A stretch of 64,000 bases of DNA from Pirellulaceae bacterium (GCA_963734865.1 CAVTIV010000022.1:74432-138431), one strand, 5' to 3'. Positions 4,953-59,436 are shown, counted from the stretch's first letter. The notes: a model not told the origin generated them from the sequence alone. Numbers and translations are program-made.

Positions 4953-4986
4953 GCGGCTCAGGCCGGTAATATCCCCCACACGATTC

Positions 4987-6076: not shown

Positions 6077-6164
6077 GCTTTGACGCGTTGAAACATCCGC
6101 TGCTGCTACTCTCGGGTGGTGCGGGCCGTTACATTACAAGCCGCAGCGTGACGGTGAATGGCGG

Positions 6165-7280: not shown

Positions 7281-7283
7281 CCA

Positions 7284-16596: not shown

Positions 16597-16983
16597 ATGT
16601 TTGGAAAACGCTCGAAAGTCAAGCAGTCTCGTACTCGTAAATCCCGCCATCAGTATCAGGCGACTCGACGCAAGCGACTGTTGCTCGAAACGCTCGAAAG
16701 CCGAAGGCTGCTGGCGGTCGTCAACTGGGACGGCGAGGGTGACGGTACGTCATTCCTTGATCCGCTGAATTGGGATACCGACTCAGGTTCCCACCGCGGC
16801 CGACGACGCGATCATCAACGTCGCCGCATCGGATCCAACCATCAACGTTGCAGGCAACGCCAGTGTCAACAGCTTGGTAACCGACGAAGCAATTACGTTC
16901 AGCGGAGGAGCTTTTACCGTAAGCACGACGGCCCAGGTGAACGCACAAGCAACGATCAGCGGCGCGACGATCGTAGGAGCTGA
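16597..16983 (+). CDS. Giant-gene fragment: N-terminus (sensible reading only to ~16786)
   Basis: MFGKRSKVKQSRTRKSRHQYQATRRKRLLLETLESRRLLAVVNWDGEGDGTSFLDPLNWDTDS. After GG at 16786-16787 the homologous reading (VPTAADDAIINVAAS...) is in frame 2. Confidence 0.7.
   Translation: MFGKRSKVKQSRTRKSRHQYQATRRKRLLLETLESRRLLAVVNWDGEGDGTSFLDPLNWDTDSGSHRGRRRDHQRRRIGSNHQRCRQRQCQQLGNRRSNYVQRRSFYRKHDGPGERTSNDQRRDDRRS
16684..16716 (+). other. LETLESRRLLA N-terminal motif
   Basis: Preceded by a strongly basic stretch. From memory, this motif recurs at the N-termini of large planctomycete extracellular proteins. Confidence 0.6.
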
Positions 16984-17863
16984 ATTCACCGGATCAGGTT
17001 CATTGCAAGTGACCAGCGCCGATGGGACTCTGGATGGTGTGACGCTGGGTGTGGATACGACGCTCAATAACGGCGCAATCGTGACGGTCAGCGGCGGCTT
17101 GATGCTGGACAACAGCACGCTGCGTCTGAATCACAGCACCAACAGCGGCAACTTTGACCAGTATGTGCAGCTGAACTTTGCCGGCGGCGTGCAGACCCTC
17201 GGCGGGACCGGGACGGTCGAACTGGTCAACAACCGCAACGACGGCTACTCGGAGCACGTCCGCTTGCGTCCGACCGCCGGCGGTGACCTGACGATCGGTG
17301 CGGGGATCACGATCAAGAATCTTGCCAGTACTTACTTCTCGGTGATCGGGGATGCGGGGCTGCCGCTTTTGATCGAGGGGACGATCATTTCGCAGAGCAC
17401 GCAGTCAAGCAACTACTCGCTGCAGGTGACCGGCTCGAGTGTGACCAACAGCGGGACGCTGCAAGTCGATACGGCCGAACTGGATGTCAACGGCCTGAGC
17501 GGGAACCTCGGCAACGTGGTGATCAACGGCGGCGACCTCGATCTGGACGGGACGTACACGGTCAGCGATCTGGTCACTGTTCCCGATGGGGGCAGTCTGA
17601 CGCTGCGCGGTGACTGGAACAACGCCAGCACGATCGATCAGACGACCGGCAGCACGGTTTATCTGGGGAGCACGTTCACGGTCGCCGATCTGGGGACGTT
17701 CACCGGCGACGGCGGCTCGGCGGTGATCTTCGGGACGCTGGAAGACGACGGGGTGACCCCCGCCGACACACTGACCATCGATGCCGACCGAAGCTGGTAC
17801 CTGTCCGGCGCGACGGTGCAGGGGATGTTGATCGACGGTGATCCCGGGCGCTGCTGCAAGTGA
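16874..17863 (+). CDS. Giant-gene fragment: repeat family R1, unit 1
   Basis: LQVTSADGTLDGVTLGVDTTLNNGAIVTVSGG...NFAGGVQTLGGTGTVELV...TIDQTTGSTVYLGSTFTVADLGTFTGDGG. The frame is open upstream to ~16787. Confidence 0.7.
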   Translation: MVTDEAITFSGGAFTVSTTAQVNAQATISGATIVGAEFTGSGSLQVTSADGTLDGVTLGVDTTLNNGAIVTVSGGLMLDNSTLRLNHSTNSGNFDQYVQLNFAGGVQTLGGTGTVELVNNRNDGYSEHVRLRPTAGGDLTIGAGITIKNLASTYFSVIGDAGLPLLIEGTIISQSTQSSNYSLQVTGSSVTNSGTLQVDTAELDVNGLSGNLGNVVINGGDLDLDGTYTVSDLVTVPDGGSLTLRGDWNNASTIDQTTGSTVYLGSTFTVADLGTFTGDGGSAVIFGTLEDDGVTPADTLTIDADRSWYLSGATVQGMLIDGDPGRCCK

Positions 17864-19150
17864 CCTCCTCGGACGCATCGCTCGATGAGGTCACCCTCTC
17901 GACCAACACGTACCTGAATAACGGCGCAGATCGTGACGGTCAGCGGCGGCTTGACGCTGGACAACAGCACGCTGCGTCTGAATCACAGCACCAACAGCGG
18001 CAACTTTGACCAGTATGTGCAGCTGAACTTTGCCGGCGGCGTGCAGACCCTCGGCGGGACCGGGACGGTCGAACTGGTCAACAACCGCAACGACGGCTAC
18101 TCGGAGCACGTCCGCTTGCGTCCGACCGCCGGCGGTGACCTGACGATCGGTGCGGGGATCACGATCAAGAATCTTGCCAGTACTTACTTCTCGGTGATCG
18201 GGGATGCGGGGCTGCCGCTTTTGATCGAGGGAACGATCATTTCGCAGAGCACCCAGTCAAGCAACTACTCGCTGCAGGTGACCGGCTCGAGTGTGACCAA
18301 CAGCGGGACGCTGCAAGTCGATACGGCCGAACTGGATGTCAACGGCCTGAGCGGGAACCTCGGCAACGTGGTGATCAACGGCGGCGACCTCGATCTGGAC
18401 GGGACGTACACGGTCAGCGATCTGGTCACTGTTCCCGATGGGGGCAGTCTGACGCTGCGCGGTGACTGGAACAACGCCAGCACGATCGATCAGACGACCG
18501 GCAGCACGGTTTATCTGGGGAGCACGTTCACGGTCGCCGATCTGGGGACGTTCACCGGCGACGGCGGCTCGGCGGTGATCTTCGGGACGCTGGAAGACGA
18601 CGGGGTCGGCTGCCGCCGACACACTGACCATCGATGCCGACCGAAGCTGGTACCTGTCCGGCGCGACGGTGCAGGGGATGTTGATCGACGGTGATCCCGG
18701 CGCACTGCTGCAAGTGACCTCCTCGGACGCATCGCTCGATGAGGTCACCCTCTCGACCAACACGTACCTGAATAACGGCGCAATCGTGACGGTCAGCGGC
18801 GGCTTGACGCTGGACAACAGCACGCTGCGTCTGAATCACAGCACCAACAGCGGCAACTTTGACCAGTATGTGCAGCTGAACTTTGCCGGCGGCGTGCAGA
18901 CCCTCGGCGGGACCGGGACGGTCGAACTGGTCAACAACCGCAACGACGGCTACTCGGAGCACGTCCGCTTGCGTCCGACCGCCGACGGTGAGCTGACGAT
19001 CGGTGCGGGGATCACGATCAAGAATCTTGCCAGTACTTACTTCTCGGTGATCGGGGATGCGGGGCTGCCGCTTTTGATCGAGGGGACGATCATCTCGCAG
19101 AGCACGCAGTCAAGCAACTACTCGCTGCAGGTGACCGGTTCGAGTGTTAC
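17006..19150 (+). repeat. R1: about 852 bp tandem repeat, about 2.5 near-identical units
   Basis: Anchor CAAGTGACC at 17006, 17857 and 18711. Units 2 and 3 are almost identical by eye. Confidence 0.9.
17933..18694 (+). CDS. Giant-gene fragment: R1 unit 2
   Basis: 253-aa ORF whose sequence is almost identical to residues of 16874-17863. Confidence 0.7.
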   Translation: MTVSGGLTLDNSTLRLNHSTNSGNFDQYVQLNFAGGVQTLGGTGTVELVNNRNDGYSEHVRLRPTAGGDLTIGAGITIKNLASTYFSVIGDAGLPLLIEGTIISQSTQSSNYSLQVTGSSVTNSGTLQVDTAELDVNGLSGNLGNVVINGGDLDLDGTYTVSDLVTVPDGGSLTLRGDWNNASTIDQTTGSTVYLGSTFTVADLGTFTGDGGSAVIFGTLEDDGVGCRRHTDHRCRPKLVPVRRDGAGDVDRR

Positions 19151-20963
19151 CAACAACGGCACGTTTGAAGCGATTTCTGGTCTCTTGGATGTTGTCCAGA
19201 CACCTACCAACTTTTCTGCCGGCACCTTGACGGGAGGGACATGGCGGACCAGTGGCGGCGACATCCGTCTGCCGTCCGGCAACACGATTCAAACGCTTGA
19301 CGCATTGGTATCGCTCGATGGTGCCGGCTCCGACTTGCGAGCTGGATCGGGGAATGCCTTATCGACTCTGGTGAACGTCGCTGCTGGTGGATCGCTCTCG
19401 CTGACGGAAGGAAATAGCCTGACGCTTGTTGGCAGTCTCGACGATTTCGGCGAGCTGACCGTCGGCAGCGGCAGCACACTGAGCGGTACTGCTGTGACGA
19501 TCAAGGATGGAGGATCCTTGGACGGTGCCGGAATCATCAATGGGTCGCTCACGGCCGAAGCGAACGCATCGATCGCACCAGGCCAGAGCCCAGGAGTATT
19601 GAGCAGCGGTGATCTCGACTTGCAGAGCGGCTCGATACTCAGTCTGGAAATCGGTGGGCCGGTCGCTGGCGATGAGTATGACCAGGTCAGTGTCGCGGGG
19701 AGCGTGATGCTGGCGGGAATGCTGGACGTCACTCTCACCGATGTGTTTACGATTGCCCAGGGTCAGACGTTTACGATCATCGACAATGATGGTACCGAGA
19801 GTGTCAACGGTTCCTTTGATGGGCTGCCCGGTGGTTCGATCATCAACGTTGGCGGCGTCGATTTTTCGATCGGCTACGGGCTGGGTGACGGAAATGACGT
19901 GGTGCTGACGGCCGAGTCGTCGGTGGACGTGTTCACCGGAGCCGGCGGAAACTATCGCTGGCTCGACCCGGCCAATTGGAGCGGCGGCAATCTGCCCACA
20001 TCCGTTGATAGCGCGTTCATCGACGACTTACCTGGCTCGCCGACCATTGAAATCGACGGAACTGTGATCGTTCGAATCGTGAATTCAGCGGAAAGAATCT
20101 CCGTAACATCCGGAAGCCTTTCGGTCCTTGATGACTCGGTGTTTTCCGGCTTGGACATCGACGGTGGAATCGTGAACCTTGGTCGAAGCAATGCGAACTC
20201 CGCCGGTACGGTGTTGAACTCCGGGGCGCTGGAGATTGGCAACGATCAGGCGCTGGGCAATGGCAGTTTGACTATCAACGGGGGCACGATATCGGCCGAT
20301 GGCGCCGCTTATGCGCTGCCCAACGAAATAGTGATCGGGGGAGACGTCAGCATTGTTGGGACCGAAGATCTGACCTTCAGCGGGCCTGCGAGCCTGGTTG
20401 CCCCCAACGCGGTCGTCGATGTGCCAGCCGGGGTTACAACGAGTTTTGATAACGACGTCGATGATGGAGGCGATGGCTACACGCTGTCCAAGTCGGGTGA
20501 CGGATCGCTCGTCCTCAGCGGAGACAATACGTTTATCGGCGGTCTGCTGGCTGACCAAGGCACGTTGCAGATCGACGGCACCATCGCGGCACCAACGACA
20601 ATCTCCAATGGTGCCATCCTGCGCGGTGCCGGTGAATTTTCAAACTCGCTGACAATCGCATCCGGGGGCACCGTCGCTCCCGGACACAGTCCCGAAATCC
20701 TTCACACCGGGGACTTTGATCTGCAGGCCGGTTCCATACTGCAGATCGAGATCGGTGGAACCACTGCCGGCAGTGAATATGACCAGGTGGATGTTTCGGG
20801 AACGGTGACCTTAGGTGGGACGCTCACTGCTGGATTGATCAATGGCTTTGTGCCATCGGCAACACAATCGATGACGATCATCAACAACGATGGCAATGAT
20901 GCGGTCGTCGGCACGTTTGCCGGCCTGCCCGAAGGGGCAACGGTGGTCGATCAGCTCGGTTGA
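18669..20963 (+). CDS. Giant-gene fragment: R1 unit 3 plus terminal block A (autotransporter-associated beta-strand-type repeats)
   Basis: 764 aa. YTLSKSGDGSLVLSGDNTFIGGLLADQGTLQIDG (PATR-like). Two copies of APGxSPG...DLQxGS...EIGG...EYDQV.V.G.V.L.G.L...F.II.NDG...G.F.GLP.G. Confidence 0.75.
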   Translation: MQGMLIDGDPGALLQVTSSDASLDEVTLSTNTYLNNGAIVTVSGGLTLDNSTLRLNHSTNSGNFDQYVQLNFAGGVQTLGGTGTVELVNNRNDGYSEHVRLRPTADGELTIGAGITIKNLASTYFSVIGDAGLPLLIEGTIISQSTQSSNYSLQVTGSSVTNNGTFEAISGLLDVVQTPTNFSAGTLTGGTWRTSGGDIRLPSGNTIQTLDALVSLDGAGSDLRAGSGNALSTLVNVAAGGSLSLTEGNSLTLVGSLDDFGELTVGSGSTLSGTAVTIKDGGSLDGAGIINGSLTAEANASIAPGQSPGVLSSGDLDLQSGSILSLEIGGPVAGDEYDQVSVAGSVMLAGMLDVTLTDVFTIAQGQTFTIIDNDGTESVNGSFDGLPGGSIINVGGVDFSIGYGLGDGNDVVLTAESSVDVFTGAGGNYRWLDPANWSGGNLPTSVDSAFIDDLPGSPTIEIDGTVIVRIVNSAERISVTSGSLSVLDDSVFSGLDIDGGIVNLGRSNANSAGTVLNSGALEIGNDQALGNGSLTINGGTISADGAAYALPNEIVIGGDVSIVGTEDLTFSGPASLVAPNAVVDVPAGVTTSFDNDVDDGGDGYTLSKSGDGSLVLSGDNTFIGGLLADQGTLQIDGTIAAPTTISNGAILRGAGEFSNSLTIASGGTVAPGHSPEILHTGDFDLQAGSILQIEIGGTTAGSEYDQVDVSGTVTLGGTLTAGLINGFVPSATQSMTIINNDGNDAVVGTFAGLPEGATVVDQLG

Positions 20964-23150
20964 CTTCGAGATCAGCTATGACGGTGGTGACGGCAATGAT
21001 GTTGTGCTTACTGGCTCCTCCGCTGATCGTCACATGGGACGGCGGCGGTGACGGCACGAGTTGGAGCGATCCGCTACAACTGGGACACCGAGACCGTACC
21101 GACGAACATCAACGAGCCATCATCGACCTGGTGGGATCCAATCCGACAGTCAATGTCGACGGACGATGTTGTCGGTCTATGCGATGGTGACGGCCGAAGA
21201 CATCGCTTCAGCAGCGGTAGCATTTTCAAGTCGATTGCAAAAGCCGAAATCAACTCCACAGCAACGATCAAGGAGCCACGATTAAAGATGTGAAGTTTGT
21301 TGGCAATGGCACACTGCAAGTATCCAGTGCCGACGGAACGCTGGACGGAGTGACGTTGGGTGTGGACACGACGCTGCTGCGAAGGCGCAAGTCACGGTGC
21401 TACAACGACTTGGTCCTGGACGATGTCACGTCCACTTGGAGCGGGACCATCGCGAGCGCAGAGCACACAATTGGCGTTGCCTTGAACTTTTCCGGCGGCG
21501 AACAAAAGCTGGACGGCACGGGCGTGGTGGAGTTGGTCAGTACCTCAGCAACAGCAACTGAGACCACGGCCGAGTCCGGGTGCGTCCCACCGACGGAGGT
21601 TATTTGACGATCGGTGTGAACGTCGTCGTGCGCAATGCCACCAACTCAAATTACTCACACTAGGTGACGCGAGCCTGCCGCTGACAATCGAAGGAACGGT
21701 GCTCTCGCAGAGTTCCGCATCGCGTACAACACGTTCGTTGTCACCGGCTCGACGGTCACAACAACGGCACGATCAACGTTGCCGTCAGGGACGCTGAGTA
21801 CGAAGAATCTGCAAAACAACGACACCATCAACGTCGCGGGGGGCGGATTGAGTCTATACGGCAATTGGCTCAACAGCGGCACGATCGACCAGACCGGAGG
21901 TGCGATCAATCTGTACGACACGTTTGTGGTCTCCGATCTGGGCACGTTTACTGGCAGCGGCGGGACTGTCAACATCGCGCGGAACGCTCGACGATCCCGG
22001 CGCCACGTTGACCGTCACGTCGGAACGAACGTGGCAGCTCAACGGTGGCACGATCCGCGGTGGCACTGGTGCCGGTCGCTTCAGATTGTCGATGACAACG
22101 ACGGCGATGCGGCCGGGACATTTGCCATCACCAGCAATGATGGAACGCTCGACGGAGTGACGTTGGGTGTGGACACGACGCTGCTGCGTGGCGCCAAGTG
22201 ACGGTGCTACAACGACCTGGTCCTGGACAATGTGACGTCACACTTGGAGCGGACCATCGCGAGCGCAGGCACACAATTTGGTCGGCTTAAACTTTTCCGG
22301 CGGAGAACAGAAGCTTGACGGCACCGGCGTGGTGGAGTTGGTCAGTAACACTCAGCAACAATCAACCAAGATCACTAGTGCGAGTGCGGCCCAGCGACGG
22401 CGGTCATTTGACGATCGCTTCCGGTGTGACGGTACGCAAGCCACGGAGCCCAAATCACGTCACGGTGGGTGATCCGACCTTGCCGCTGACGATCGAAGGA
22501 ACGGTCTCGGCGGAAAGTTCCGCATCCATACCAACACGTTCGATTGTCACCGGCTCCGGTCAATGAAGGCATGATCAACGTGCTCGCCGGAACGCTGAGA
22601 CCGAAGAATCTGCAAAACAACGACACCATCAACGTCGCCGGGGGCGGATTGAATCTATACGGCAACTGGCTCAATAGCGGCACGATCGACCAGACCGGAG
22701 GTGCGATCAATCTGTACGATACGTTTGTGGTCTCGGATCTGGGCACGTTCACTGGCAGCGGCGGGACTGTCAACATCGCGCGGAACGCTGGATGATCCCG
22801 GCGCGACGTTGACCGTCACGTCGGAGAGAAACTGGCAGCTCAATGGTGGCACGATCCGCGGTGGTACTGGTGCCGGCCGCTTCAGATCGTCGATGACAAC
22901 GACGGCGATGCGGCCGGTACATTCGCGGTCACCAGCAATGACGGAACGCTGGACGGCGTGACGTTGGGCGTGGACACGACGCTGCTCGAGGCGCGCAAGT
23001 GACGGTGCTACAACGACCTGGTCCTGGACAATGTGAAGTCACACTTGGAGACGGGCCATCGCAGAAGTCAGGCACGCATTACTGGGTCGGCATTGAACTT
23101 TTCCGGCGGCGAACAAAAGCTCGGCGGCACCGGGCGTCGTCGAGTTGGTC
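20960..23150 (+). pseudogene. Most degenerate stretch of the giant gene (junction A/B plus R2 units 1-3): about a dozen frame changes and two in-frame TGA
   Basis: Short ORFs in all three frames (20960-21190, 21048-21293, 21290-21607, 21779-22201, 22278-22472, 22315-22566, 22544-22795, 22701-22961, 23033-23281). Each carries pieces of the same unit (VTWDGGGDGTSWSDP, GTLDGVTLGVDTTLL, LNFSGGEQKLDGTGVVELVS). Confidence 0.75.
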
Positions 23151-24575
23151 AGTACTACCACAGCAATAATGCAGACCACGACCGGAGTCCGGGTGAGTCC
23201 CACCGACGGCGGTCGTTTGACGATCGGTTCGGGCGTCGACGTGCGCAATGCCACCGACTCGAATTACGTCACGCTAGGTGATGCGAGCCTTGCCGCTGAC
23301 GATCGAGGGTACGGTGCTCTCGCAAAGTCCGCATCGGCATACAACACGTTCGTTGTCACCGGCTCGACGATCACCAACAACGGCACGATCAATGTTGCGT
23401 CGGGGACGCTGAGTACGACGAACCTGCAAAACAACCACGACATCAACGTCAGCGGCGGGTCATTGAGCCTCTCGGGGGATTGGCTCAACAGTGGCACGAT
23501 CGACCAGACCGGCGGCACGATCGGTCTGTACGACACATTTGTGGTGTCGGATCTGGGAACGTTTACCGGCACAGGTGGGACTGTCAGCATCGGTGGAACG
23601 CTGGATGATCCCGGCGCCACGTTAACCGTCACGTCGGAACGGACGTGGCAATTGAGTGGCGGCACAATTCGCGGGGGTACTGGCGCCAACCGCCTTCAGA
23701 TTGTCGACGACAACGACGGCGATGCTGGCGGGAACGTTCGGGTAACCAGCAATGATGGAACACTGGACGGCGTGACACTGGGTGTCGACACGACGCTGCT
23801 AAACGGCGCTCAGGTGACCGTGCAAAACGACCTGGTGCTGGACAACGTGACGTTGCGGTTGGAACGTGTCTACGTTGATTCAGGCACGGCGTACGATGTG
23901 GGCCTGAATTTCTCTGGCGGGACTCAAACGCTCGGTGGGACCGGCGTCGTGGAGCTGTTCAGCGACTACTATGCCAATAACGCGACCGACTTCGAGGAAC
24001 GCTATGTGCGAGTCCGCCCGACCGATGGCGGTAGTCTGACAATCGGTTCGGGCATCACGGTGCGTAACACGACCGATTCCCGGTTCATCACCGTGGGGGA
24101 TCCATCGCTTCCGCTGGTGATCAACGGTACGCTAATCGCGCAAAGCACGCAGAGCAGCCGCAACAATTTGAATCTGACTGGGTCGACGATTACCAACAAC
24201 GGCACCATGAATGTCGTGTCGGGGACGCTGGATACAATCAATCTGCAAAACAGCCATGACATCAACGTCAGCGGCGGGTCCTTGAGCCTCTCGGGGGACT
24301 GGCTCAACAGTGGCACGATCGACCAGACCGGCGGCGCGATCGGTCTGTACGACACATTTCAGGTGTCGGATTTGGGTACGTTTACCGGCACCGGCGGGAT
24401 TGTCAGCATCGGTGGTACGCTGGATGATCCCGGCGCGACGTTAACGGTCACGTCGGAACGGACGTGGCAATTGAGTGGCGGCACAATTCGCGGTGGTGCT
24501 GGTGCCAACCGCCTGCAGATTGTTGACGACAACGACGGTGACGCTGGCGGGAACGTTTCGGGTAACCAGCAGTGA
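23145..24575 (+). CDS. Giant-gene fragment: R2 units 3b-5 (longest intact piece of the R2 array)
   Basis: 476 aa with internal duplication. GTINVASGTLSTTNLQNNHDINVSGGSLSLSGDWLNSGTIDQTGG occurs twice. Confidence 0.7.
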   Translation: MVSTTTAIMQTTTGVRVSPTDGGRLTIGSGVDVRNATDSNYVTLGDASLAADDRGYGALAKSASAYNTFVVTGSTITNNGTINVASGTLSTTNLQNNHDINVSGGSLSLSGDWLNSGTIDQTGGTIGLYDTFVVSDLGTFTGTGGTVSIGGTLDDPGATLTVTSERTWQLSGGTIRGGTGANRLQIVDDNDGDAGGNVRVTSNDGTLDGVTLGVDTTLLNGAQVTVQNDLVLDNVTLRLERVYVDSGTAYDVGLNFSGGTQTLGGTGVVELFSDYYANNATDFEERYVRVRPTDGGSLTIGSGITVRNTTDSRFITVGDPSLPLVINGTLIAQSTQSSRNNLNLTGSTITNNGTMNVVSGTLDTINLQNSHDINVSGGSLSLSGDWLNSGTIDQTGGAIGLYDTFQVSDLGTFTGTGGIVSIGGTLDDPGATLTVTSERTWQLSGGTIRGGAGANRLQIVDDNDGDAGGNVSGNQQ

Positions 24576-24677
24576 CGGGACACTGGACGGAGTGACACTG
24601 GGTGTCAATACGACGTTGTTAAACGGTGCTCAGGTGACCGTCCAAAACGACCTGGTGCTGGATGACGTGACGTTGCG

Positions 24678-39267: not shown

Positions 39268-39313
39268 TGATCCCAGCGAAAGCTCCAGTGACGTTTACGG
39301 AGTCGTCGTCAGG

Positions 39314-42300
39314 GTGACCGATACCGACGGTAGCGGCGCCGCGGTCATTGGCATTACGGTCAAGAATGTTCCAGCGCAGGTGGACAGTTTTGGCTTTGAC
39401 GCCAACACGATCAACGAAGGGCAAGTCGCCACGCTAACGGGAACGTTTAGCGATCCGGGCACCGGCGATGACCATACGGTCGAAATTGATTGGGGCGATG
39501 GCGGGGGCAACGAGACGTTTTTGATTCCACAGGGCGATCGTCTGTTTTCGCTGGAGCATATGTATGACGACGATGGTGACTACGACGTCCGCTTCAGCGT
39601 GTTTGACGACGATCGCGATCCCGGTTTACCCGATCCGGGCGACGTTGGCTTTTCCTATGACATCATCGACCAGATCGAGGTACTCAATGTTGCCCCAACG
39701 GCGACGATCAATGCGCAGGCCAACGCGATCGAGGGGCAAACCATCAAGATCTCTGCCACCGTAAGTGACGACGGCGCTGCCGATACATTCACCTATGCAT
39801 GGCTGATCAAGCTGAATGGTCAAGGCGTCGCGAGCAGCGCACTGCCGAATTTCGATTTTACGCCGGCCATCGAAGGCATTTACGACGTCGCGCTCGTGGT
39901 AAGCGATGACGAACACGCCACCTACGCGACCTCGACCACGATCAACGTCACGAACGATGCACCTACGATCCTTCCCTCGAACATCACGATTTCGGTCGAC
40001 GGCGTAGCCACCGCCAGCGTTCAAGAAGGGACGGAAATCTCCCTCCAGGGCGTCTTCACGGATGCAGGTCTGAGCGACATCCATAGCGTGACGGTAGATT
40101 TTGGCGACGGTTCGGCACCGGTGGTCACGGTCGTCGAGTTCGGCGACCGTCACTTCAGGGACATTCGACATACCTATGCAGACGACCCAGCGGGCCTGAA
40201 CGACAATTACTTGATCACCGTTACCATGGATGATGGTGATCAGACCTCGTCGGCAACCGTGCCGCTGGAGGTTCGTAACGCGGACCCGATCGTCTCGATT
40301 CGCAGCGATCGAATCACGGCCGCGACGGTCCGGCTGGTTGCCGACATCCAGGACGCCGGAATTCTCGATACGCACACCATCGAGTGGTTCGTGAACGGTG
40401 CCCCCGTGGCCGGCACCAAGATTGTCAGCGTGCCGCGACCAGTCGGCACTGCGCTGGATGTATTATTCAGGGCCACGGACGACGACGGTGGCCAAGGGAC
40501 TGTCACGGCGAACTATTTTGTCTTGGATGATGCTGCCAATACGGTCACGATCACCGACGGTGTCGGCGGGCAAGTCAGCGTGGCAGTCGATGGACAGCCA
40601 CCAGCTGTTTTCATACCCAAAGATCAAATCTTGATCGCCACGGGAGGCGGAGACGACCGAGTCACGGTCGACCCGGCTGTCACCACCAACATACAAATCG
40701 ACGCAGGCGCTGGTGACGACAGTATCATCACGGCGTCGGGCAATGACACGCTGATCGGTGGCAGCGGTGACGACACACTTGTCGCCGGACCGGGCGACGA
40801 TCTTTTGGAGAGTATTGCGGGAGATGATCTGCTTGATGGCGGTACGGGTGACGATCAGTACCGGTTCAATCACTTCAGCGACAAAATCCTTGTTGATTCG
40901 GAGGGAAGTGACACACTGAACTTCGAAGCCGTTGCCGAGGATTCTGATTCGACCGGCGGCATTTCGATCGATCTGGGCATCGATGATGGCTCGCCACAGC
41001 CCGTTCGCTCCAATGGCACCGTCGCACTTTACGGCGACTTTGAGAATGTCATCGGGTCGGCTTATTCCGATCAGATCGTCGGCAGCGACCAGCCGAACGA
41101 AATCTTTGGCGGTCCCGGGGATGACAGCATCGAAGGCTCTGGCGGTGATGACACGATCGCCGGCGGCGACGGGGATGATACGCTGATTGGCGGAGCCGAC
41201 GGCGGCGATTCGATCGATGGCGGCAGCGGCGACGATACGATCGTCTCCGGCAGTGGCTCCGACGACACAATCTTCGGCGGCCCGGGCGACGACAGCATCC
41301 AAGGCAGCGGCGGTGACGACACGATCAGCGGCGGCGAGGGTAACGACACGATTGTCGGTGGCGACAGTGGTGGCGAGTCGATCGATGGCGGCAGCGGTGA
41401 CGACACGATCACCTCCGGCGGTGGCCCTGGTGACACGATCTTTGGCGGCCCTGGCGACGACAGTATCGCAGGTTCTGGAGGTAATGACACAATCGTCGGC
41501 GGCGACGGCAACGACACGATCACCGGCGGCAACAGTGACACGGTGACAGGGGCCAGCGGTGGTGAATCGATCACGGGAGGAACCGGCGACGACACGATCA
41601 CCAGTGGCAGTGGCTCCGGCGACACGATCTTCGGCGGCCCCGGGGACGACAGCATCGAAGGTAGCGGCGGTGACGACACGATCAGCGGCGGCGATGGCGA
41701 CGACACAATCAACGGCGGAGACGGCGGCAACGAATCGATCGATGGCGGCAGTGGCAACGACACGATCACCTCCGGCGGTGGCCCCGGCGACACGATCTTC
41801 GGCGGCCCCGGCGACGACAGCATCGAAGGCTCCGGTGGCGACGACACGATCAGCGGCGGTGAGGGTGATGACACGATCGTCGGCAGCGACGGCGGTAACG
41901 AGTCAATTGACGGCGGCAGCGGTGACGACACCATCACCTCCGGCGGTGGCCCCGGTGATACAATCTTCGGTGGTCCGGGCGACGACAGCATCGAAGGCTC
42001 TGGCGGTGACGACACGATCAGCGGCGGCGACGGTAACGACACGATCACTGGCGGCGACGGTGGCAACGAATCGATTGACGGCGGCAGCGGTGACGACACG
42101 ATCACCTCCGGCGGTGGCCCCGGTGATACGATCTTCGGTGGTCCTGGCGACGACAGCATCGAAGGCTCTGGCGGTGACGACACGATCAGCGGTGGCGACG
42201 GTGACGACACGATCACCGGTGGCGACGGTGGCAACGAATCGATTGACGGCGGCAGCGGCAACGACACGATCACCTCCGGCGGTGGCCCCGGCGACACGAT

Positions 42301-45300
42301 CTTCGGCGGTCCCGGCGACGACAGCATCGAAGGCTCCGGTGGCGACGACACGATCAGCGGTGGCGACGGTGACGACACGATCACCGGTGGCGACGGTGGC
42401 AATGAGTCAATCGATGGCGGCAGCGGCGACGATACGATCACTGCTGGCGCTGGCCCTGGTGATACGATCTTCGGGGGCCCCGGCGACGACAGCATCGAAG
42501 GCTCTGGCGGTGACGACACGATCAGCGGCGGCGACGGTGACGACACGATCACCGGCGGCGACGGTGGCAACGAGTCGATCGATGGCGGCAGCGGCGACGA
42601 TACCATCACTGCCGGCGCTGGCCCTGGTGATACGATCTTTGGCGGCCCGGGCGACGACAGCATCCAAGGCACCGGCGGAAGTGACACAATCAGCGGCGGC
42701 GACGGTGATGACACGATCGTTGGCGGCGATGGCGGTAGTGAGTCGATCGATGGCGGCAGCGGTGACGACACAATTACCAGTGGCGCCGGCCCTGGTGATA
42801 CGATCTTTGGCGGTCCCGGCGACGACAGCATCCAAGGCAGCGGTGGCGACGACACCATGGTTGGCGGCGACGGTGACGACACGATCATCGGCAGCGATGG
42901 TGGTGGTGAGTCGATCGATGGCGGCAGTGGTGACGACACGATTGTTGGCGGTGATGGCCCCGACGACACGATCTTTGGCGGACCTGGCGACGATAGCATC
43001 CAAGGCAGCGGCGGTGCCGACACAATCATCGGCGGTGACGGTGATGACACCATCACCGGTGGCGAGGGTGGCGGCGAGTCGATCGATGGCGGCAGTGGTG
43101 ACGACACGCTTTCGTCCGGGGGAGGGATTGGCGACACGATTTTCGGCGCCGCCGGTAACGATCTGGTCATCCTGGCAAGCGGATCGGTGAAGATTTTCGG
43201 TGATGACGACGTCACCAACGATCCGATCAGCGATGATCGGATCCTGATCCAAGCGGACGCGGACATCCGAATTGTCACCGGAGTGCAGAACAACCAGGCG
43301 ACGGTTACTGTGAACGGAGTTGCGGTCGCCGATCTTACCGACGTTGACGCGGCATTGCTCGTTGGCGGAGCCGGCAATAATGTGTTGGACGCTTCGATGT
43401 TTAACGGCGACGCGGGACTCGTCGGCGCAGCCGGCGACGACACACTCCTTGGTGGCAGTGGTAACGATACGCTCGAAGGCGGCCCTGGAAACGATTCACT
43501 CGCCGGCGGCGACGGTGATGATACCTATCTCTTTACCGGCTTGGATCTCGGTGTTGACGTGGTCGACGAAGTGGCCGATCAATCGAACGATACGCTGGAC
43601 TTCTTTGGTCTGTTGTCGACGATCGATATCGATCTCTCACGGGTCGATCTTCAGACCGTAGCGGTAGGGAACCTGCAGTTGCAACTGACCAGTCCGAATG
43701 CGATCGAGAGCGTGATCGGAACGGTCTTCTCCGACAAGTTACTTGGAAACGATCGGAATAACATACTGGTCGGCGGAGGCGGGTTGGATTCAATTTACGG
43801 CGCCGCCGGCGACGATTACTTGACCGCCTCGCGCACGCGGTATGTCTTCTTGGACTTCGATTCGCAAACCGATGGCGCCGAACATATCTACACGCCAAGC
43901 GAGCGAAATGCAATTCAAGCCCGATTGGAGCAGGACTTTGGGATGTTTGACGTGGTCATCAGTCAAACGGTGCCCGTCGGCGAGATCTTCATTGCGGTCG
44001 AGTTCAATCACCCGCCAATCGTCAATGGCAAGGCGATTTCCGGTGGGATATCCGATCGTATCGGCTTCCGCGATCTGGCTCGTGGCGGGACGGTTCAAGT
44101 TGATGTCAATGGTTTCTTGGGAAATGGCACGAACCAGTTGCCGCCGGAGGAGCAGAACTTCGTGTCGCTCTCCTCGACCATTGCGTCGCACGAGTTGGCT
44201 CACATGTATGGTTTGCGACATTTCGATGCACTGGGCGCACCGGGTAAAGGCGTCTTCGCGGCACTGGGAGGGAATGTATTCTTGCCGTCGTTCGGCGGAC
44301 CAGCAGCGGCTGAAGAAACCGCCGATCACCTGATCGCATCTCCACTTTCGGTTCGCACGACGCTGACCGACGCCCTACATGATCCATACTTTGGTGAGCG
44401 GGAAGCGCTGAAGTTGGCCTTTGGCGACACTGGCGAAGCGTTCGTCGAACGACCCAACGCAGAGAAGACAGACTTGGTGACGATCAACGGCGTGGTCCAT
44501 CCAGCGCAATCGATCGGCAGTTTACCAGCCTTGGCGGTGCCGAACACGATCGAGAATCCGAATGCGGAAAACTTTGCCGTACCATTAGATGCCGCAGCTG
44601 CCGCCGTCGTGGGAATGATCGAACTCGATGGCCCTACCAGTGAGAGCGATTTCTATTCGTTCACAGGTCAAGCCAATCAGTTGGTGACGATCGAAGTCAT
44701 GTCGCGGTCACTTCGATCCCGGATCGCGAACACGATTGATTCGCTAGTGCGAATTTACGACGCCAACGGTACTAAACTCAATTACTACGGAAGCCCACTC
44801 GGTGCATTCAATGACGACGGATTCGAGCCGACCGATTCAATTCTGATTGATGTACTGTTGCCCGCCGACGGAGCTTATTACGTCGAAGTCGATACGTTCA
44901 ATTTCTTCACGGAAGAGTTTTCCGTTTACTTGCCCAACTTCGATGTCAATTCGTTTTGCAGTAGCGATCCAGGCCACATCGGCTGTACCGATACAGACAC
45001 CGGCCAATATGAACTGCTGATCTATCGTTTCGAATCAGGCGTGAGCCAGGCCAGTGGCGATACGTTGATCGGGGGTGCAGGTGATGACACCTTGGTCGGT
45101 TCGTCGGGCAACGACGTATTCTTTTCCGATGGCGGAGATACCTTCGCCGGGCCTGGATCGCCGGCAACCGTCGTCATCAATCACCCGCCGCTCCTAGACC
45201 CGATTGCTGATCAGCAAGTGAACGAGCTGGAACTACTGCAATTCAATGTCACCGCAACCGATCCAGATCAAGGCGATACGCTTCAATATCGCCTGCTACC

Positions 45301-47665
45301 TGCCGGTGGGACAACAGTATTCCCGGCCGGTGCCGTGATCGATCCAAGTACCGGTGCGGTCACTTGGACTCCGCAAGACAATGGTATTTTCGAGGCTATC
45401 GTTGAAGTCTCCGACTTGCACGGGCTAACCGCAAGCGAGTCGGTCATCATCACCGTGGTTAACATTGATATTTCCGTCACGATCACAGGCATTACCGGAG
45501 ATTTAGAAGAGGGGAGTCAGGTCACGATTGACGGGTTCGCAGATGACCCCAGCGGCAACGCAACAACAATCACTCTGACATACGAGGTCTTTCGCAGTGG
45601 CCTGTTGATTGCTGCCGATTCAGGAGTCGATTTGGCCAGTCTGACTTTCACTCCAGAGGATGACGGTGAATATGACATCCGCTTGACTGCCGGCGGGAAC
45701 AATGGTGAGAGCGATGTTGCTCTGCAAACGATCACGATTGCAAACGTTGCTCCCGCTTTTAACGCCGGGCCGAATGAGACGCTTCCGTCCTCGGCCGAAG
45801 GTCTGTTCAGCCGGTTGCTCAGCTTTTCCGATCCAGGGAACGACGTGTGGTCTGGAACTGTCAATTACGGCGACTCGGCCACGAACTTTCCGCTGGCAAT
45901 CAACCAGATCGCCAAGGAGTTTGACCTAACCCACACCTATATAGCGGAGGGTATTCATACAGTGACCGTAACGGTCGATGATGGTGATTCCGGTGGGGTG
46001 GACGTTGAAACGTTCGACGTGACGGTAATACTGAATTCGCCGCCGGTCATTGATCCTCAGAGTTTTCACATTGACGAAAACCAGACGACCGTCGGTGCGA
46101 TTGCCGCGACCGACCCTGATTTGCCCGGTGATACGCTGGCGTTCTCGATTACCGGCGCTGGCCCGGACGATGCCAGATTTTCGATTACTACTGCGGGAAT
46201 GTTGAGTTTTATCGCCGCGCCCGATTACGAGGACCCTAACGACATCGGCGGGTCAGTCGGCGACAGCATCTATCTGGTGCAAGTTGAAGTCATTGACGAC
46301 GCAGGCGAAAGTGATACGGCGAACATCACGGTCACAGTCGATCCGGTCAACGATCTGGCGCCGGTGTTCACATCGGCCGCCGCGGCCAACGTGGCTGAGA
46401 ACACCACGGCAGTGCTAACGATCTCGGCGACCGATGGCGATTCGCCGGTACAGACGGTCAGTTTCTCGATCAGCGGCAATGGCGCCGACGACGCCAGATT
46501 CCAGATCACCGGCGGCAATCAGCTCGTCTTCATCGCCGCTCCCGATTTTGAGACACCGACCGACGCCAACGCCGACAACGTCTACGAAGTGGAACTGGTC
46601 GCTGACGACGGCAACGGTCTGACGACTTTGCAGACGGTCACAGTCACGGTCGACCCGGTCAACGATCTGGCGCCGGTGTTCACATCGGCCGCCGCGGCCA
46701 ACGTGGCTGAGAACACCACGGCAGTGCTAACGATCTCGGCGACCGATGGCGATTCGCCGGTACAGACGGTCAGTTTCTCGATCAGCGGCAATGGCGCCGA
46801 CGACGCCAGATTCCAGATCACCGGCGGCAATCAGCTCGTCTTCATCGCCGCTCCCGATTTTGAAACGCCGCTCGATGCCAACGCCGACAACGTCTACGAA
46901 GTGGAACTGGTCGCTGACGACGGCAACGGTCTGACGACTTTGCAGACGGTCACGGTCACGGTCGACCCGGTCAACGATTTGGCGCCGGTGTTCACATCGG
47001 CCGCCGCGGCCAACGTGGCTGAAAACACCGCGGCAGTGCTAACGATCTCGGCGACCGATGGCGATTCGCCGGCGCAGACGGTCAGTTTCTCGATCAGCGG
47101 CAACGGCGCCGACGATACCAAGTTCGAGATCACCGGCGGCAATCAGCTCGTCTTCATCGCCGCTCCCGATTTTGAAACGCCGCTCGACGCCAATGCCGAC
47201 AACGTCTACGAAGTGGAACTGGTCGCTGACGACGGCAACGGTCTGACGACATTGCAGACGGTCACGGTCACGGTCGACCCGGTCAACGATCTGGCGCCGG
47301 TGTTCACATCGGCCGCCGCGGCCAACGTGGCTGAAAACACCACGGCAGTGCTAACGATCTCGGCGACCGATGGCGATTCGCCGGCGCAGACGGTCAGTTT
47401 CTCGATCAGCGGCAATGGCGCCGACGATGCCAAGTTCGAGATCACCGGCGGCAATCAGCTCGTCTTCATCGCCGCTCCCGACTTTGAAACGCCGCTCGAT
47501 GCCAACGCCGACAACGTCTACGAAGTGGAACTGGTCGCTGACGACGGCAACGGGCTGACGACATTGCAGACGGTCACGGTCACGGTCGACCCGGTCAACG
47601 ACTCGCGCCGGTGTTCACATCGGCCGCCGCGGCCAACGTGGCTGAGAACAGCACGGCGGTACTAA
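39314..47665 (+). CDS. Giant-gene fragment (2783 aa): PKD-like units, 12 RTX-type units, metzincin motif, PPC-like domain, cadherin-like repeats
   Basis: HTVEIDWGDGGG and SVTVDFGDGSAP (PKD-like). GGxGxD nonapeptide arrays. HELAHMYGLRH. ELDGPTSESDFYSFTGQANQLVTIEV (PPC-like). ...VDPVNDLAPVFTS...ENT.AVLTISATDGDSP (cadherin-like). It begins inside a PKD-like unit (VTDTDGSGAAVIGITVKNVPAQV), so it has no N-terminus of its own. Confidence 0.8.
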   Translation: MTDTDGSGAAVIGITVKNVPAQVDSFGFDANTINEGQVATLTGTFSDPGTGDDHTVEIDWGDGGGNETFLIPQGDRLFSLEHMYDDDGDYDVRFSVFDDDRDPGLPDPGDVGFSYDIIDQIEVLNVAPTATINAQANAIEGQTIKISATVSDDGAADTFTYAWLIKLNGQGVASSALPNFDFTPAIEGIYDVALVVSDDEHATYATSTTINVTNDAPTILPSNITISVDGVATASVQEGTEISLQGVFTDAGLSDIHSVTVDFGDGSAPVVTVVEFGDRHFRDIRHTYADDPAGLNDNYLITVTMDDGDQTSSATVPLEVRNADPIVSIRSDRITAATVRLVADIQDAGILDTHTIEWFVNGAPVAGTKIVSVPRPVGTALDVLFRATDDDGGQGTVTANYFVLDDAANTVTITDGVGGQVSVAVDGQPPAVFIPKDQILIATGGGDDRVTVDPAVTTNIQIDAGAGDDSIITASGNDTLIGGSGDDTLVAGPGDDLLESIAGDDLLDGGTGDDQYRFNHFSDKILVDSEGSDTLNFEAVAEDSDSTGGISIDLGIDDGSPQPVRSNGTVALYGDFENVIGSAYSDQIVGSDQPNEIFGGPGDDSIEGSGGDDTIAGGDGDDTLIGGADGGDSIDGGSGDDTIVSGSGSDDTIFGGPGDDSIQGSGGDDTISGGEGNDTIVGGDSGGESIDGGSGDDTITSGGGPGDTIFGGPGDDSIAGSGGNDTIVGGDGNDTITGGNSDTVTGASGGESITGGTGDDTITSGSGSGDTIFGGPGDDSIEGSGGDDTISGGDGDDTINGGDGGNESIDGGSGNDTITSGGGPGDTIFGGPGDDSIEGSGGDDTISGGEGDDTIVGSDGGNESIDGGSGDDTITSGGGPGDTIFGGPGDDSIEGSGGDDTISGGDGNDTITGGDGGNESIDGGSGDDTITSGGGPGDTIFGGPGDDSIEGSGGDDTISGGDGDDTITGGDGGNESIDGGSGNDTITSGGGPGDTIFGGPGDDSIEGSGGDDTISGGDGDDTITGGDGGNESIDGGSGDDTITAGAGPGDTIFGGPGDDSIEGSGGDDTISGGDGDDTITGGDGGNESIDGGSGDDTITAGAGPGDTIFGGPGDDSIQGTGGSDTISGGDGDDTIVGGDGGSESIDGGSGDDTITSGAGPGDTIFGGPGDDSIQGSGGDDTMVGGDGDDTIIGSDGGGESIDGGSGDDTIVGGDGPDDTIFGGPGDDSIQGSGGADTIIGGDGDDTITGGEGGGESIDGGSGDDTLSSGGGIGDTIFGAAGNDLVILASGSVKIFGDDDVTNDPISDDRILIQADADIRIVTGVQNNQATVTVNGVAVADLTDVDAALLVGGAGNNVLDASMFNGDAGLVGAAGDDTLLGGSGNDTLEGGPGNDSLAGGDGDDTYLFTGLDLGVDVVDEVADQSNDTLDFFGLLSTIDIDLSRVDLQTVAVGNLQLQLTSPNAIESVIGTVFSDKLLGNDRNNILVGGGGLDSIYGAAGDDYLTASRTRYVFLDFDSQTDGAEHIYTPSERNAIQARLEQDFGMFDVVISQTVPVGEIFIAVEFNHPPIVNGKAISGGISDRIGFRDLARGGTVQVDVNGFLGNGTNQLPPEEQNFVSLSSTIASHELAHMYGLRHFDALGAPGKGVFAALGGNVFLPSFGGPAAAEETADHLIASPLSVRTTLTDALHDPYFGEREALKLAFGDTGEAFVERPNAEKTDLVTINGVVHPAQSIGSLPALAVPNTIENPNAENFAVPLDAAAAAVVGMIELDGPTSESDFYSFTGQANQLVTIEVMSRSLRSRIANTIDSLVRIYDANGTKLNYYGSPLGAFNDDGFEPTDSILIDVLLPADGAYYVEVDTFNFFTEEFSVYLPNFDVNSFCSSDPGHIGCTDTDTGQYELLIYRFESGVSQASGDTLIGGAGDDTLVGSSGNDVFFSDGGDTFAGPGSPATVVINHPPLLDPIADQQVNELELLQFNVTATDPDQGDTLQYRLLPAGGTTVFPAGAVIDPSTGAVTWTPQDNGIFEAIVEVSDLHGLTASESVIITVVNIDISVTITGITGDLEEGSQVTIDGFADDPSGNATTITLTYEVFRSGLLIAADSGVDLASLTFTPEDDGEYDIRLTAGGNNGESDVALQTITIANVAPAFNAGPNETLPSSAEGLFSRLLSFSDPGNDVWSGTVNYGDSATNFPLAINQIAKEFDLTHTYIAEGIHTVTVTVDDGDSGGVDVETFDVTVILNSPPVIDPQSFHIDENQTTVGAIAATDPDLPGDTLAFSITGAGPDDARFSITTAGMLSFIAAPDYEDPNDIGGSVGDSIYLVQVEVIDDAGESDTANITVTVDPVNDLAPVFTSAAAANVAENTTAVLTISATDGDSPVQTVSFSISGNGADDARFQITGGNQLVFIAAPDFETPTDANADNVYEVELVADDGNGLTTLQTVTVTVDPVNDLAPVFTSAAAANVAENTTAVLTISATDGDSPVQTVSFSISGNGADDARFQITGGNQLVFIAAPDFETPLDANADNVYEVELVADDGNGLTTLQTVTVTVDPVNDLAPVFTSAAAANVAENTAAVLTISATDGDSPAQTVSFSISGNGADDTKFEITGGNQLVFIAAPDFETPLDANADNVYEVELVADDGNGLTTLQTVTVTVDPVNDLAPVFTSAAAANVAENTTAVLTISATDGDSPAQTVSFSISGNGADDAKFEITGGNQLVFIAAPDFETPLDANADNVYEVELVADDGNGLTTLQTVTVTVDPVNDSRRCSHRPPRPTWLRTARRY
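41102..43138 (+). repeat. 168-bp (56-aa) tandem repeat, 12 units (one of 189 bp), RTX/hemolysin-type Ca-binding sequence
   Basis: ATCTT(T/C)GGCGG(T/C)CC anchors at 41102, 41270, 41438, 41627 and then every 168 bp to 42971. Unit: IFGGPGDDSIEGSGGDDTISGGDGDDTITGGDGGNESIDGGSGDDTITSGGGPGDT. Confidence 0.9.
44189..44221 (+). other. HEXXHXXGXXH zinc-metalloprotease (metzincin-type) motif: HELAHMYGLRH
   Basis: In frame in ORF 39314-47665 (CAC at 44189). A PPC-like beta-sandwich segment follows about 130 aa later. Confidence 0.6.
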
Positions 47666-48207
47666 CGATCTCGGCGACCGATGGCGATTCGCCGGCGCAG
47701 ACGGTCAGCTTCTCGATCAGCGGCAACGGCGCCGACGATACCAAGTTCCAGATCACCGGCGGCAATCAGCTCGTCTTCATCGCCGCTCCCGACTTTGAGA
47801 CGCCGCTCGATGCCAACGCCGACAACGTCTACGAAGTGGAACTGGTCGCTGACGACGGCAACGGTCTGACGACATTGCAGACTGTGCTGGTCACGGTCGA
47901 TCCGGTCAATGACAACGCGCCGGTGTTCACATCGGCCACTGCGGTCAGCGTGGCTGAGAACAGCACGGCGGTGCAAACGATCTCGGCGACCGATGGCGAT
48001 CTGCCGGCACAAACGGTCAGCTTCTCCGTCAGCGGCACTGGCGCCGACGATGCCAATTCCAGATCACCGGCGGCAATCAGCTCGTCTTCATCGCCGCTCC
48101 CGATTTTGAGAATCCGACTGACCAAAACGGAGACAATGTTTATGAGGTCGAGATTGAAGCGAACGACGCAAATGGATTCATCACGCGTCACATAGTTCAC
48201 GTTACAG
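46337..48207 (+). repeat. 312-bp (104-aa) tandem repeat, 6 near-identical cadherin-like units (a diverged 7th unit lies upstream at ~46027)
   Basis: GTCGA(T/C)CCGGTCAACGA anchors at 46337, 46649, 46961, 47273, ~47585 and ~47897. Confidence 0.9.
47611..48195 (+). CDS. Giant-gene fragment: cadherin-like units 5-6
   Basis: The frame changes at ~47598 (AACGACTCGCGCC versus AACGATCTGGCGCC in the other units). It changes again at ~48055 (GCCAATTCCAG versus GCCAAGTTCCAG). Confidence 0.65.
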   Translation: MFTSAAAANVAENSTAVLTISATDGDSPAQTVSFSISGNGADDTKFQITGGNQLVFIAAPDFETPLDANADNVYEVELVADDGNGLTTLQTVLVTVDPVNDNAPVFTSATAVSVAENSTAVQTISATDGDLPAQTVSFSVSGTGADDANSRSPAAISSSSSPLPILRIRLTKTETMFMRSRLKRTTQMDSSRVT

Positions 48208-48243
48208 TCTCCAATGGCGACCCGACGGCGATGATCGACATCA

Positions 48244-49776
48244 ATGCCTCGGCAAATCTCGTTCCCGAAGCGCGCAACAAGCGGAGTAGCGGTCGGCATC
48301 ACTGTCTCGGCCAGTGACCCACTCGGATCGACTTTTATGTACAGTTTGATCGACGATGCCGGCGGTCGGTTTGAAATAGAGCCTACGACAGGGATCGTCA
48401 CCGTGGGTGACGGGTCGCTACTGGACGGACCGGCGACGCACGCGATCACGGTGCAGGCCAGCGACGGATTGGGAGGCACGATAACGGCCAACTTCGATGT
48501 CGATGTGTCCAACGTTGCGCCGACAATCACGGAACTCTACTCGATCAATGGCGGGTTCGACAACAATTCAGGGGATCGAGTAGTAGCGATTGAAGGCAAC
48601 TACTTCGACCCGGCCAGCCTGCTTGACACACACACGATTATAGTTGATTGGGGCGATGGCGGGGCGGCAGAGACGCTATCGGACGATTCGGTTGATCAAA
48701 CCGACGACGAGTTCGCTGGTTCGCACGTGTACGCCGACGGCGGTGTGTACATAATCACCGTTACGGTCATCGACAGCGACAACGCCGCATCGGAGGAGTT
48801 CATCGCGCGGGCAGTAGTAACCGGCGTGACCTTGGTCGACGGTACGCTGTACGTGATTGGGACCCGCGGCCAGGACGACGTCGACATCACCATCGGCAGT
48901 GATCACGGCGGCATTGAGACGCTTAAGGTGAAGACACAACTCGATGGAAATGGCACTCATGAAGTTGATACCTTCGATCCCAATCTGGTCGATCAGATTG
49001 TCATTCGTATGCGTAATGGCAACGACATTGTCCACATCCACCGTGACGTGGCAATCGACGCCATCGTTCACGGCGGCGGCGGGAATGACATCCTCCTCAG
49101 TGGACGCGGAAACGACGAACTTCGGGGCGGTCGCGGCGACGACGTACTTGTTGGCGGCGCGGGCGAGGACAAGCTGTACGGTGGCAGTAACGATGACCTG
49201 CTGATCGGTGGCGTTGGTATGGACACGCTCAGCGGTGGCAGCGGAAAGGATACCGTCAGCGGCGGACTCGGAGACGACGTTCTGATGGGTGGTCGCGGCG
49301 ACGATCTACTCATTGCCGGCGCAGGCGATGATATCGCGCACGGTGGCAGCGGTGACGACATCCTGTATGGCGGGGCGGGCCAGGATACGCTGCGCGGCGG
49401 CACCGGGAACGACATCATCTTTGGAGAATTCGGAGACGACCATCTCATGGGTGGCCGTGGCAACGACGTGCTCGTCGCTGGTCGGGGCGACGACAAATTG
49501 CGAGGTGGAAGCGATGCGGACATTCTGATCGGCGGCATCGGCAATGACAGTCTGACCGGCGGTAATGGCGACGATCTGTTGATAGGTCACTCGGCCGAGA
49601 ACGAATTGAGTGCGACCGCTGTGGCCGCCGCGATGGCCCACTGGACCGCGGGTGACCTGGCCGCCGCGTTAGGCGACCTCGGAACGCTGTCCGAGGACGG
49701 CGACGTGGATGACTTGATCGGCGGCAAGGGTGACGACGAACTGCTCGGTGGTCTCAATGACAGATTGATGCCGTAG
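48244..49776 (+). CDS. Giant-gene fragment: last cadherin/PKD-like units and the C-terminal RTX block
   Basis: 510 aa. [14 protein letters not shown]...[27 protein letters not shown], then GGxGxD repeats to the C-terminus. Stop TAG at 49774-49776. Confidence 0.75.
49070..49590 (+). repeat. C-terminal RTX (GGxGxDxL) nonapeptide array, about 19 units
   Basis: [48 protein letters not shown]...[10 protein letters not shown]. Confidence 0.8.
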
Positions 49777-59405: not shown

Positions 59406-59436
59406 GGGTGGCTCCTTTGGTGCTCTGGTTCGGATG

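Follow-up and report, generated by a model that had tools for sequence, protein, structure and literature searches.

A 33.2-kb gene for a protein of extracellular-type domains, recorded with at least 41 frame breaks in a planctomycete assembly

Large RTX adhesins, such as LapA and the Marinomonas ice-binding adhesin, are type I secreted proteins that combine arrays of immunoglobulin (Ig)-like or cadherin-like units with GGxGxD blocks and carry an RTX block near the C-terminus. Very long genes are common in Planctomycetes: genes above 20 kb are present in 15 of 29 planctomycete genomes, the largest reported being 36,239 bp (PMC5177795), and planctomycete 'giant genes' for surface proteins are attributed to Reva and Tummler (2008), as cited in Kohn et al. 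2016 (PMC5177795). Here we analyze one such gene in a 64,000-nt stretch of DNA from a Pirellulaceae bacterium (GCA_963734865.1, CAVTIV010000022.1:74432-138431), hereafter the window; all coordinates are positions within it, and the gene lies on its + strand. A preliminary description had recognized here a modular surface-protein gene of unusual size, split into more than 35 open reading frame (ORF) fragments. Set against the figures above, the size is not unusual for Planctomycetes.

In the deposited sequence the giant gene is broken at least 41 times, and with the frame restored it has 11,082 codons that encode extracellular-type domains. We consider it likely that the living organism, probably one of the Pirellulales, has a single intact gene at this locus and that the breaks are errors in the assembly consensus. 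Metagenome-assembled genomes (MAGs) built from nanopore reads are known to contain frameshifts caused by insertions and deletions (indels) and, consequently, inflated pseudogene counts, and the problem is worse at low coverage (PMC8103633).

A single reading unit across changing frames

The gene starts at the ATG at 16597 and stops at the TAG at 49774-49776, both of which are located exactly where the preliminary description had placed them. From 16516 to 49776 the + strand is tiled end to end by overlapping stop-to-stop segments, with the frame switching between segments, and the same motifs recur in the translations of successive frames; LNFSGG.Q.LGGTG and TSxDGTLDGVTL are found in all three. 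A model-free count gives 41 as the minimum number of frame changes that lead from the ATG to the TAG avoiding every stop, compared with 152 when this stretch is read on the other strand, in agreement with the proposal that the segments are fragments of one reading unit. We also computed a Viterbi path using codon log-odds trained on the long ORFs of the window, penalizing frame changes and stop read-through equally. This path contains 46 frame changes and three read-through stops (49 breaks in total), yields an 11,082-residue product and does not change over penalties from 6 to 12. Some seemingly intact ORFs hide short out-of-frame stretches that return to frame, for example at ~21380, 23250 and 31150, and the earlier count of more than 35 fragments is therefore, if anything, conservative; the overall range of breaks is 41 to about 60.

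Every part that had been named for the protein was found, in the order proposed, by Pfam matches, motif positions and tandem-repeat periods (Table 1). The homologues of these parts elsewhere are 3,000-4,000 codons long, not 11,000, and each super-module opens with the WDGGGDGTSW-type head that also comes right after the N-terminal signal region; both observations would fit a row of separate real genes, each corresponding to one super-module or block, instead of one polypeptide. The junctions argue otherwise. B/C and C/D are continuous, as had been claimed, each lying inside a single ORF (27030-28247 and 33386-34777, respectively), and A/B, with its breaks at 20961 and 21022, is bridged by alignments to three uninterrupted foreign ORFs. 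At D/E, the break at 39226 falls inside one PKD-like unit, which reads INWGDGQTTTDPVI before the break and GEESFTGQHVY after it and which aligns to the next unit across the break with E = 1e-7; the 2,783-codon ORF that follows therefore begins mid-domain, without a signal of its own. Taken alone, this restored unit gives no significant match to any Pfam model, and we have not kept a PKD assignment for it beyond its paralogy to the next unit. No second LETLESRRLLA/Planc_extracel motif, intergenic gap or in-frame start context was found at A/B, B/C, C/D or D/E, and repeat homology carries on across every break that could be tested. Separate genes are thus extremely unlikely.

Uninterrupted homologous ORFs of 3,090-3,982 codons are present in five other assemblies (L004, L005, L014, L058 and L062). 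Two of the five have short-read assembler contig names; L004 is a Pirellulales MAG with a SPAdes NODE name. Each ORF covers only part of the giant gene, but together they align over 35 of the 49 breaks, with L058 and L062 bridging those of the beta-helix region. Separate genes at orthologous loci had been named in advance as the result that would speak against a single gene, and what we see is the opposite. Because uninterrupted homologues from five assemblies run across so many of the breaks, we conclude that all pieces from 16597 to 49776 are one reading unit. The L004 ORF (8054-20002 of JBFWUW010000067, 3,982 codons) contains a short N run close to its 3' end, so that where it really ends is uncertain and the ORF may extend further.

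The breaks and their probable cause

The inferred frame changes are shifts of 1-2 bp, with +1 and -1 about equally common, and stand against at most one nonsense substitution. Those indels that alignment of paralogous copies places exactly are nearly all of 1 bp, mostly deletions and mostly outside homopolymers (for example AAGT[C]AAAC, CCACC[G]TGGG and GGCC[T]GGAC). Where the gaps between paralogous copies are longer, their length is divisible by three or one base off such a value, and no large deletion was seen in the giant gene. Despite 98% identity, repeats A1-A3 show 3-4 indels for 17 substitutions. Two of the read-through stops, 22199 and 23000, lie inside a short doubly shifted stretch, LL(R)RRKSRCYNDL, which is common to B1-B3 and where the other modules read LLNGAQVTVQNDL. 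The third, at 26583, has its paralogous codon at 19831 and is the sole candidate for a nonsense substitution.

Read-through of the breaks in vivo, by programmed ribosomal frameshifting or other recoding, has one point in its favor: coding potential is kept in every fragment. However, the more than 40 sites have no common sequence motif, +1 and -1 events are about equal in number, several paired shifts are just 30-100 nt apart, and no known system operates at such density; we attach practically no weight to this explanation.

The lesion spectrum bears more directly on whether the gene is a real pseudogene, that is, one inactivated very recently, in which the N-terminal two thirds has been gaining frameshifts and the rest has not yet been hit. 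In bacteria, mutation produces about one indel per ten substitutions, and indels fall mostly in runs, according to E. coli mutation-accumulation estimates. Some 46 indels acquired by decay should therefore be accompanied by many nonsense codons, and at most one is seen, the plausible substitution at 26583. A genuine pseudogene would be expected to carry a mixed spectrum of disabling lesions (nonsense codons, varied indels, deletions and insertion sequences), whereas the lesions here are almost purely 1-bp indels outside homopolymers, and the expected nonsense codons and longer deletions are not seen. Nor is the 2,813-codon open stretch that begins mid-domain, without its own signal, a surviving independent gene.

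The repeat copies themselves carry a further signal. Two indels 97 nt apart, a +1 (GCG[C]GG) and a -1 (CG-CTT), are present in both B1 and B2, copies of 86% identity. The stretch with this indel pair contains 11 base differences, 10 of which lie between the two indels; read in the restored frame, eight of these ten are synonymous and the other two make up one Thr/Asn change, while the frame that is actually open between the shared indels contains a stop in B2. This pattern indicates that B1 and B2 diverged under selection in the restored frame. Since the differences are nearly all synonymous in that frame, the shared indels must have arisen after B1 and B2 diverged, which speaks against a pseudogene. 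Recurrent context-dependent error explains the shared indels; two pairs of independent identical mutations do not.

Two conserved flanking genes bear the same type of lesion. On the - strand, ptsI (60507-62274) is recorded as two overlapping ORFs that do not share a frame, of which ORF 61249-62274 corresponds to Enzyme I residues 3-235 and ORF 60507-61502 to residues 259-564, with the shift roughly at 61510-61560, near a T4 run. On the + strand, a conserved 788-residue gene (10362-12726), which encodes a ~520-residue domain fused to HEAT_2 repeats (a twin-arginine signal is annotated on the domain in some homologues), is interrupted by precisely one surplus base at 11601 (TTC[G]CTG); its two parts are 77% and 68% identical to the homologue P0123, whose alignment loses no residue. 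The Viterbi path also placed changes in the flanks at 10238/10348 and 57764/57088, and we discarded these as ordinary gene boundaries (the homologue starts at 10362, and the shifts come just before ORF stops). It further marked candidate compensated pairs inside intact flank ORFs (e.g. 4524/4600 and 54919/54995).

The closest relatives of module A are found in L001 (ENA ERZ25039600 contig_83416) and L002 (ERZ25039603 contig_4176), both 'contig_N' assemblies. L002 has priA and a histidine kinase gene in two ORFs apiece; L001 has a glycosyltransferase region spread over several ORFs, and its homologue of the giant gene is likewise fragmented. The breaks are probably technical because lesions of the same kind split ptsI and the 788-residue gene, because the assemblies of the nearest relatives also split housekeeping genes, and because intact homologues exist in five other assemblies. 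On this account the 41 to about 60 breaks would be places where the consensus gained or lost a single base in error, as is typical of metagenomes assembled from long reads, probably nanopore here, when coverage of the locus is low or mixed; we infer both the technology and the cause of the error clustering.

A number of observations weigh against consensus error as the whole explanation. The density of the breaks is very uneven: module A and the beta-helix region have ~1 per kb, which rises to ~5 per kb in the interval 28.9-30.0 kb and to ~8 per kb in the interval 21.0-23.2 kb, B1-B3 (21.0-23.3 kb) being the most densely broken part of the giant gene, versus none between 39226 and 47603, an 8.4-kb interval with two tandem arrays. 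The ~31 kb of flank has just two proven breaks, so that two of its roughly 25 genes (8%) are affected. A uniform error process does not predict such unevenness. Third positions of the restored frame still take most of the differences among B1-B3 (0.51-0.52, chi-square p ~1e-4 or lower), a point in favor of consensus error and against a pseudogene, but the bias is weaker than the 0.64-0.67 of B4-B6, which is compatible with either added substitution noise or relaxed selection. The textbook signature of nanopore indels is homopolymers, unlike most of the indels here. Finally, a second assembly of the same species was not found: the best non-self match to module A is 46% identical, and for the beta-helix region the best match in Joint Genome Institute (JGI) metagenomes is 45% identical.

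One form of consensus error would accommodate much of this. If the consensus at 16.6-39.2 kb mixes strains or repeat copies (copy-number variants of A, B and C, or misplaced reads) and was poorly polished, this would explain the uneven density, the near raw-read noise in B1-B3 (~1.5% indels), which may rest on few reads, the extra non-synonymous-looking substitutions there and the occurrence of the same errors at the same sites in sister copies. The super-modules, besides their PATR-bearing tails, do carry 0.8-0.9-kb DNA repeats of 65-98% identity, and these repeats fill 17-33 kb. Against this, the beta-helix region (33.8-39.3 kb) has 5-6 breaks without any DNA-level repeat within the window, while only two breaks fall in the cadherin array (95% identity) and none in the RTX array. 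We regard a mixed consensus as a serious possibility, though on balance a doubtful one. The simpler notion that repeats resist polishing was rejected as the source of the uneven density on the same grounds, as the RTX array is clean, the cadherin array nearly clean and the non-repetitive beta-helix DNA broken.

The uneven density is also the main reason why we keep some weight on a pseudogene. Per kilobase, the giant gene has 15-20 times as many breaks as its flanks; they are absent from 8.4 kb and clustered in B1-B3, where the third-position bias is weaker, and giant repetitive surface genes are often dispensable. Given the lesion spectrum, the synonymous divergence of B1 and B2 and the lesions in two conserved neighbors, we judge it unlikely. 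It is very unlikely that the indels are real and that a localized indel-specific process put 40-60 single-base indels into 23 kb, leaving the last 8.4 kb and the neighbors nearly clean; this would equally imply almost no nonsense mutations or larger deletions alongside them. If the breaks are real, the locus is a rare snapshot of a giant gene dying. Most likely, however, the giant gene is alive and its fragmentation is not a real feature. The ~40 'hypothetical protein' ORFs of the deposited record should accordingly be annotated as one giant gene; at least two fragments (P0001 and P0004) are present in protein databases as separate proteins. As this case shows, restoring the frame by read-through and comparing the result with homologues found in other assemblies can bring out an architecture of 11,000 residues even where the assembly is noisy.

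The restored protein and its neighborhood

Domain-model searches matched Planc_extracel, PATR, Beta_helix, PKD_4, HemolysinCabind, PPC and cadherin-like units in the fragments. The Planc_extracel match spans residues 24-41 of the first ORF and scores 25.5 bits, exactly the cut-off. The super-module heads, WDGxGDGTS(W/F), are at 16726, 21035 and 27792; in A, three ~852-bp repeats at 17063-19163 are 98% identical. PATR (PF12951) matches score 29.2 and 32.4 bits, and TIGR02601 scores 31.7 bits. Beta_helix is matched in three fragments over 33.4-39.3 kb (top score 34.4 bits), the beta-helix portion of the restored protein amounting to ~1,700 residues. The cadherin array has a 312-bp period with 5.7 copies at 46326-48109, and HemolysinCabind, the model of GGxGxD nonapeptide repeats, matches 19 stretches (E = 1e-125) and a further nine (E = 1e-55).

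Table 1. Features of the giant-gene locus, in window coordinates
Feature	Position	Strand	Remarks
Whole reading unit	16597..49776	+	~33.2 kb, ~11,080 codons with frame restored
Basic N-terminus with LETLESRRLLA (16684-16716), Planctomycete extracellular motif	16597..16725	+	Pfam PF07595
Super-module A	16726..21034	+	WDGEGDGTSF head; PATR-containing tail ends GDGNDVVL
Super-module B	21035..27791	+	Six ~810-bp repeats B1-B6 (21332-25844), then tail
Super-module C	27792..33830	+	~900-bp repeats (28083-32900), then tail
Right-handed beta-helix region	33850..39050	+	(N)VISGN-type turns; Pfam Beta_helix
PKD-like units	39100..40450	+	First one across break 39226; Pfam PKD_4, 4 stretches
RTX calcium-binding array	41101..43155	+	168-bp period, ~12 units (2.5 + 9.4 copies)
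Zincin-like domain	43830..44640	+	HELAHMYGLRH at 44189-44221
PPC (pre-peptidase C-terminal) domain	~44645..44893	+	Pfam PF04151, 28.0 bits, cut-off 25.9
He_PIG, Big_9 and cadherin-like units	45150..48320	+	
C-terminal RTX block	49040..49650	+	HemolysinCabind, 9 stretches; then ~40-residue tail, then TAG
Zone with 43 of 46 inferred frame changes	16783..39226	+	Viterbi path
Frame changes	16783, 17849, 17926, 18611, 20961, 21022, 21161, 21258, 21587, 21652, 21693, 21980		
Frame changes	22077, 22274, 22392, 22558, 22781, 22878, 23132, 24564, 24676, 25335, 25703, 26025		
Frame changes	26456, 26634, 27071, 28227, 28949, 28987, 29096, 29257, 29577, 29870		
Frame changes	31516, 31635, 31931, 33391, 34706, 34752, 35920, 37806, 39226		
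Last three frame changes	47603, 48058, 48279	+	Zone 47603..48279
Stops read through	22199, 23000, 26583		22199 and 23000, local double indels; 26583, TAG (paralogue TCG)

The less common part of the giant protein is the zincin-like domain, which belongs to a small uncurated family. It contains the HEXXHXXGXXH zinc-binding motif, has no sequence match in Pfam, NCBIfam or the PDB, and has only six homologues among 5.8 billion proteins. Three of them (P0244-P0246) are stand-alone proteins of ~390-460 residues in which the zincin-like domain is accompanied by a PPC-like region, and two of the three end in a dockerin domain. Across the seven homologues compared, the second and third His of the motif and the neighboring G/L/R/D are invariant, whereas the first His is replaced by Gln in P0245 and the Glu varies; the invariant positions of the domain are A128, H134, G137, L138, R139, H140, D142, G145, G148, G150, P162, E172 and H176. 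An AlphaFold model from the 7-sequence alignment has a mean predicted local distance difference test (pLDDT) score of 47.7, a low confidence and too low for a fold search. The module, with its PPC domain, may be proteolytic or may serve self-processing of the giant protein. P0241 (377 residues), 66% identical to the zincin/PPC region, begins mid-domain and ends in an arginine-rich tail that is apparently out of frame, which suggests a second related genome in which the giant gene is recorded in fragments.

The product is most likely, judging by its domain content, a secreted or cell-surface fiber of ~11,000 residues involved in adhesion or in a calcium-stabilized surface structure. The beta-solenoid and beta-helix parts would form the fiber shaft, the PKD- and cadherin-type units would be Ig-like modules, and the 28 RTX stretches would provide calcium stabilization. 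As for export, the N-terminus carries the planctomycete extracellular motif, and the C-terminal RTX block, with ~40 residues after its last repeat, is like that of a type I secretion substrate. Among the flanking ORFs scanned, up to 62.3 kb, there is neither an ABC transporter gene nor a membrane-fusion gene, and the only candidate for type I export is a partial TolC-like OEP ORF at 35-937, 15.6 kb upstream. No fragment matches an autotransporter barrel, and the C-terminus is RTX; because there is no barrel domain, the giant protein is not an autotransporter.

Downstream, a Ser/Thr protein kinase gene with a TPR-rich C-terminal half (50058-52658, +) begins 282 bp past the giant-gene stop. A terminator/promoter scan downstream of that stop returned nothing, and there is no terminator-like site before the kinase gene. 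A - strand cluster at 55642-60525 comprises two GH130 (mannoside phosphorylase-type) genes and a GT4 glycosyltransferase gene. At 1533-10267 there are three BNR_2-domain genes, one of which also has a beta-lactamase-type domain, and a fourth gene, of BNR/sortilin type, is located downstream at 52755-54077 (- strand). By their domain assignments, the GH130/GT4 cluster and the BNR_2 genes suggest a glycan-degradation neighborhood.

Comparison with known systems

The 33.2-kb gene adds one more giant planctomycete surface protein to those described. With its frame restored it would be, like them, a very long single ORF of repeated extracellular modules, and its N-terminus bears the Planctomycete extracellular motif; it differs in being recorded with at least 41 frame breaks. 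The combination of three PATR super-modules, beta-helix, RTX, zincin-like/PPC and cadherin-like units was not seen in the retrieved 3,000-4,000-codon homologues. With frameshift-fragmented genes of nanopore MAGs (PMC8103633) the locus shares single-base indels that split conserved genes, in its neighbors and in 'contig_N' relatives as well, but its breaks are locally much denser than those of the flanks, and most of its sites are non-homopolymer.

Autotransporter passengers (PATR/TIGR02601) resemble the giant protein in the PATR of the super-module tails and in weak matches to the passenger regions of EprS and fusolisin, although the giant protein has no C-terminal beta-barrel translocator. 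With the large RTX adhesins it shares Ig-/cadherin-like arrays, GGxGxD blocks and a terminal RTX block; it differs from them in having a planctomycete signal-type motif instead of a retention module, and in being mostly beta-solenoid.

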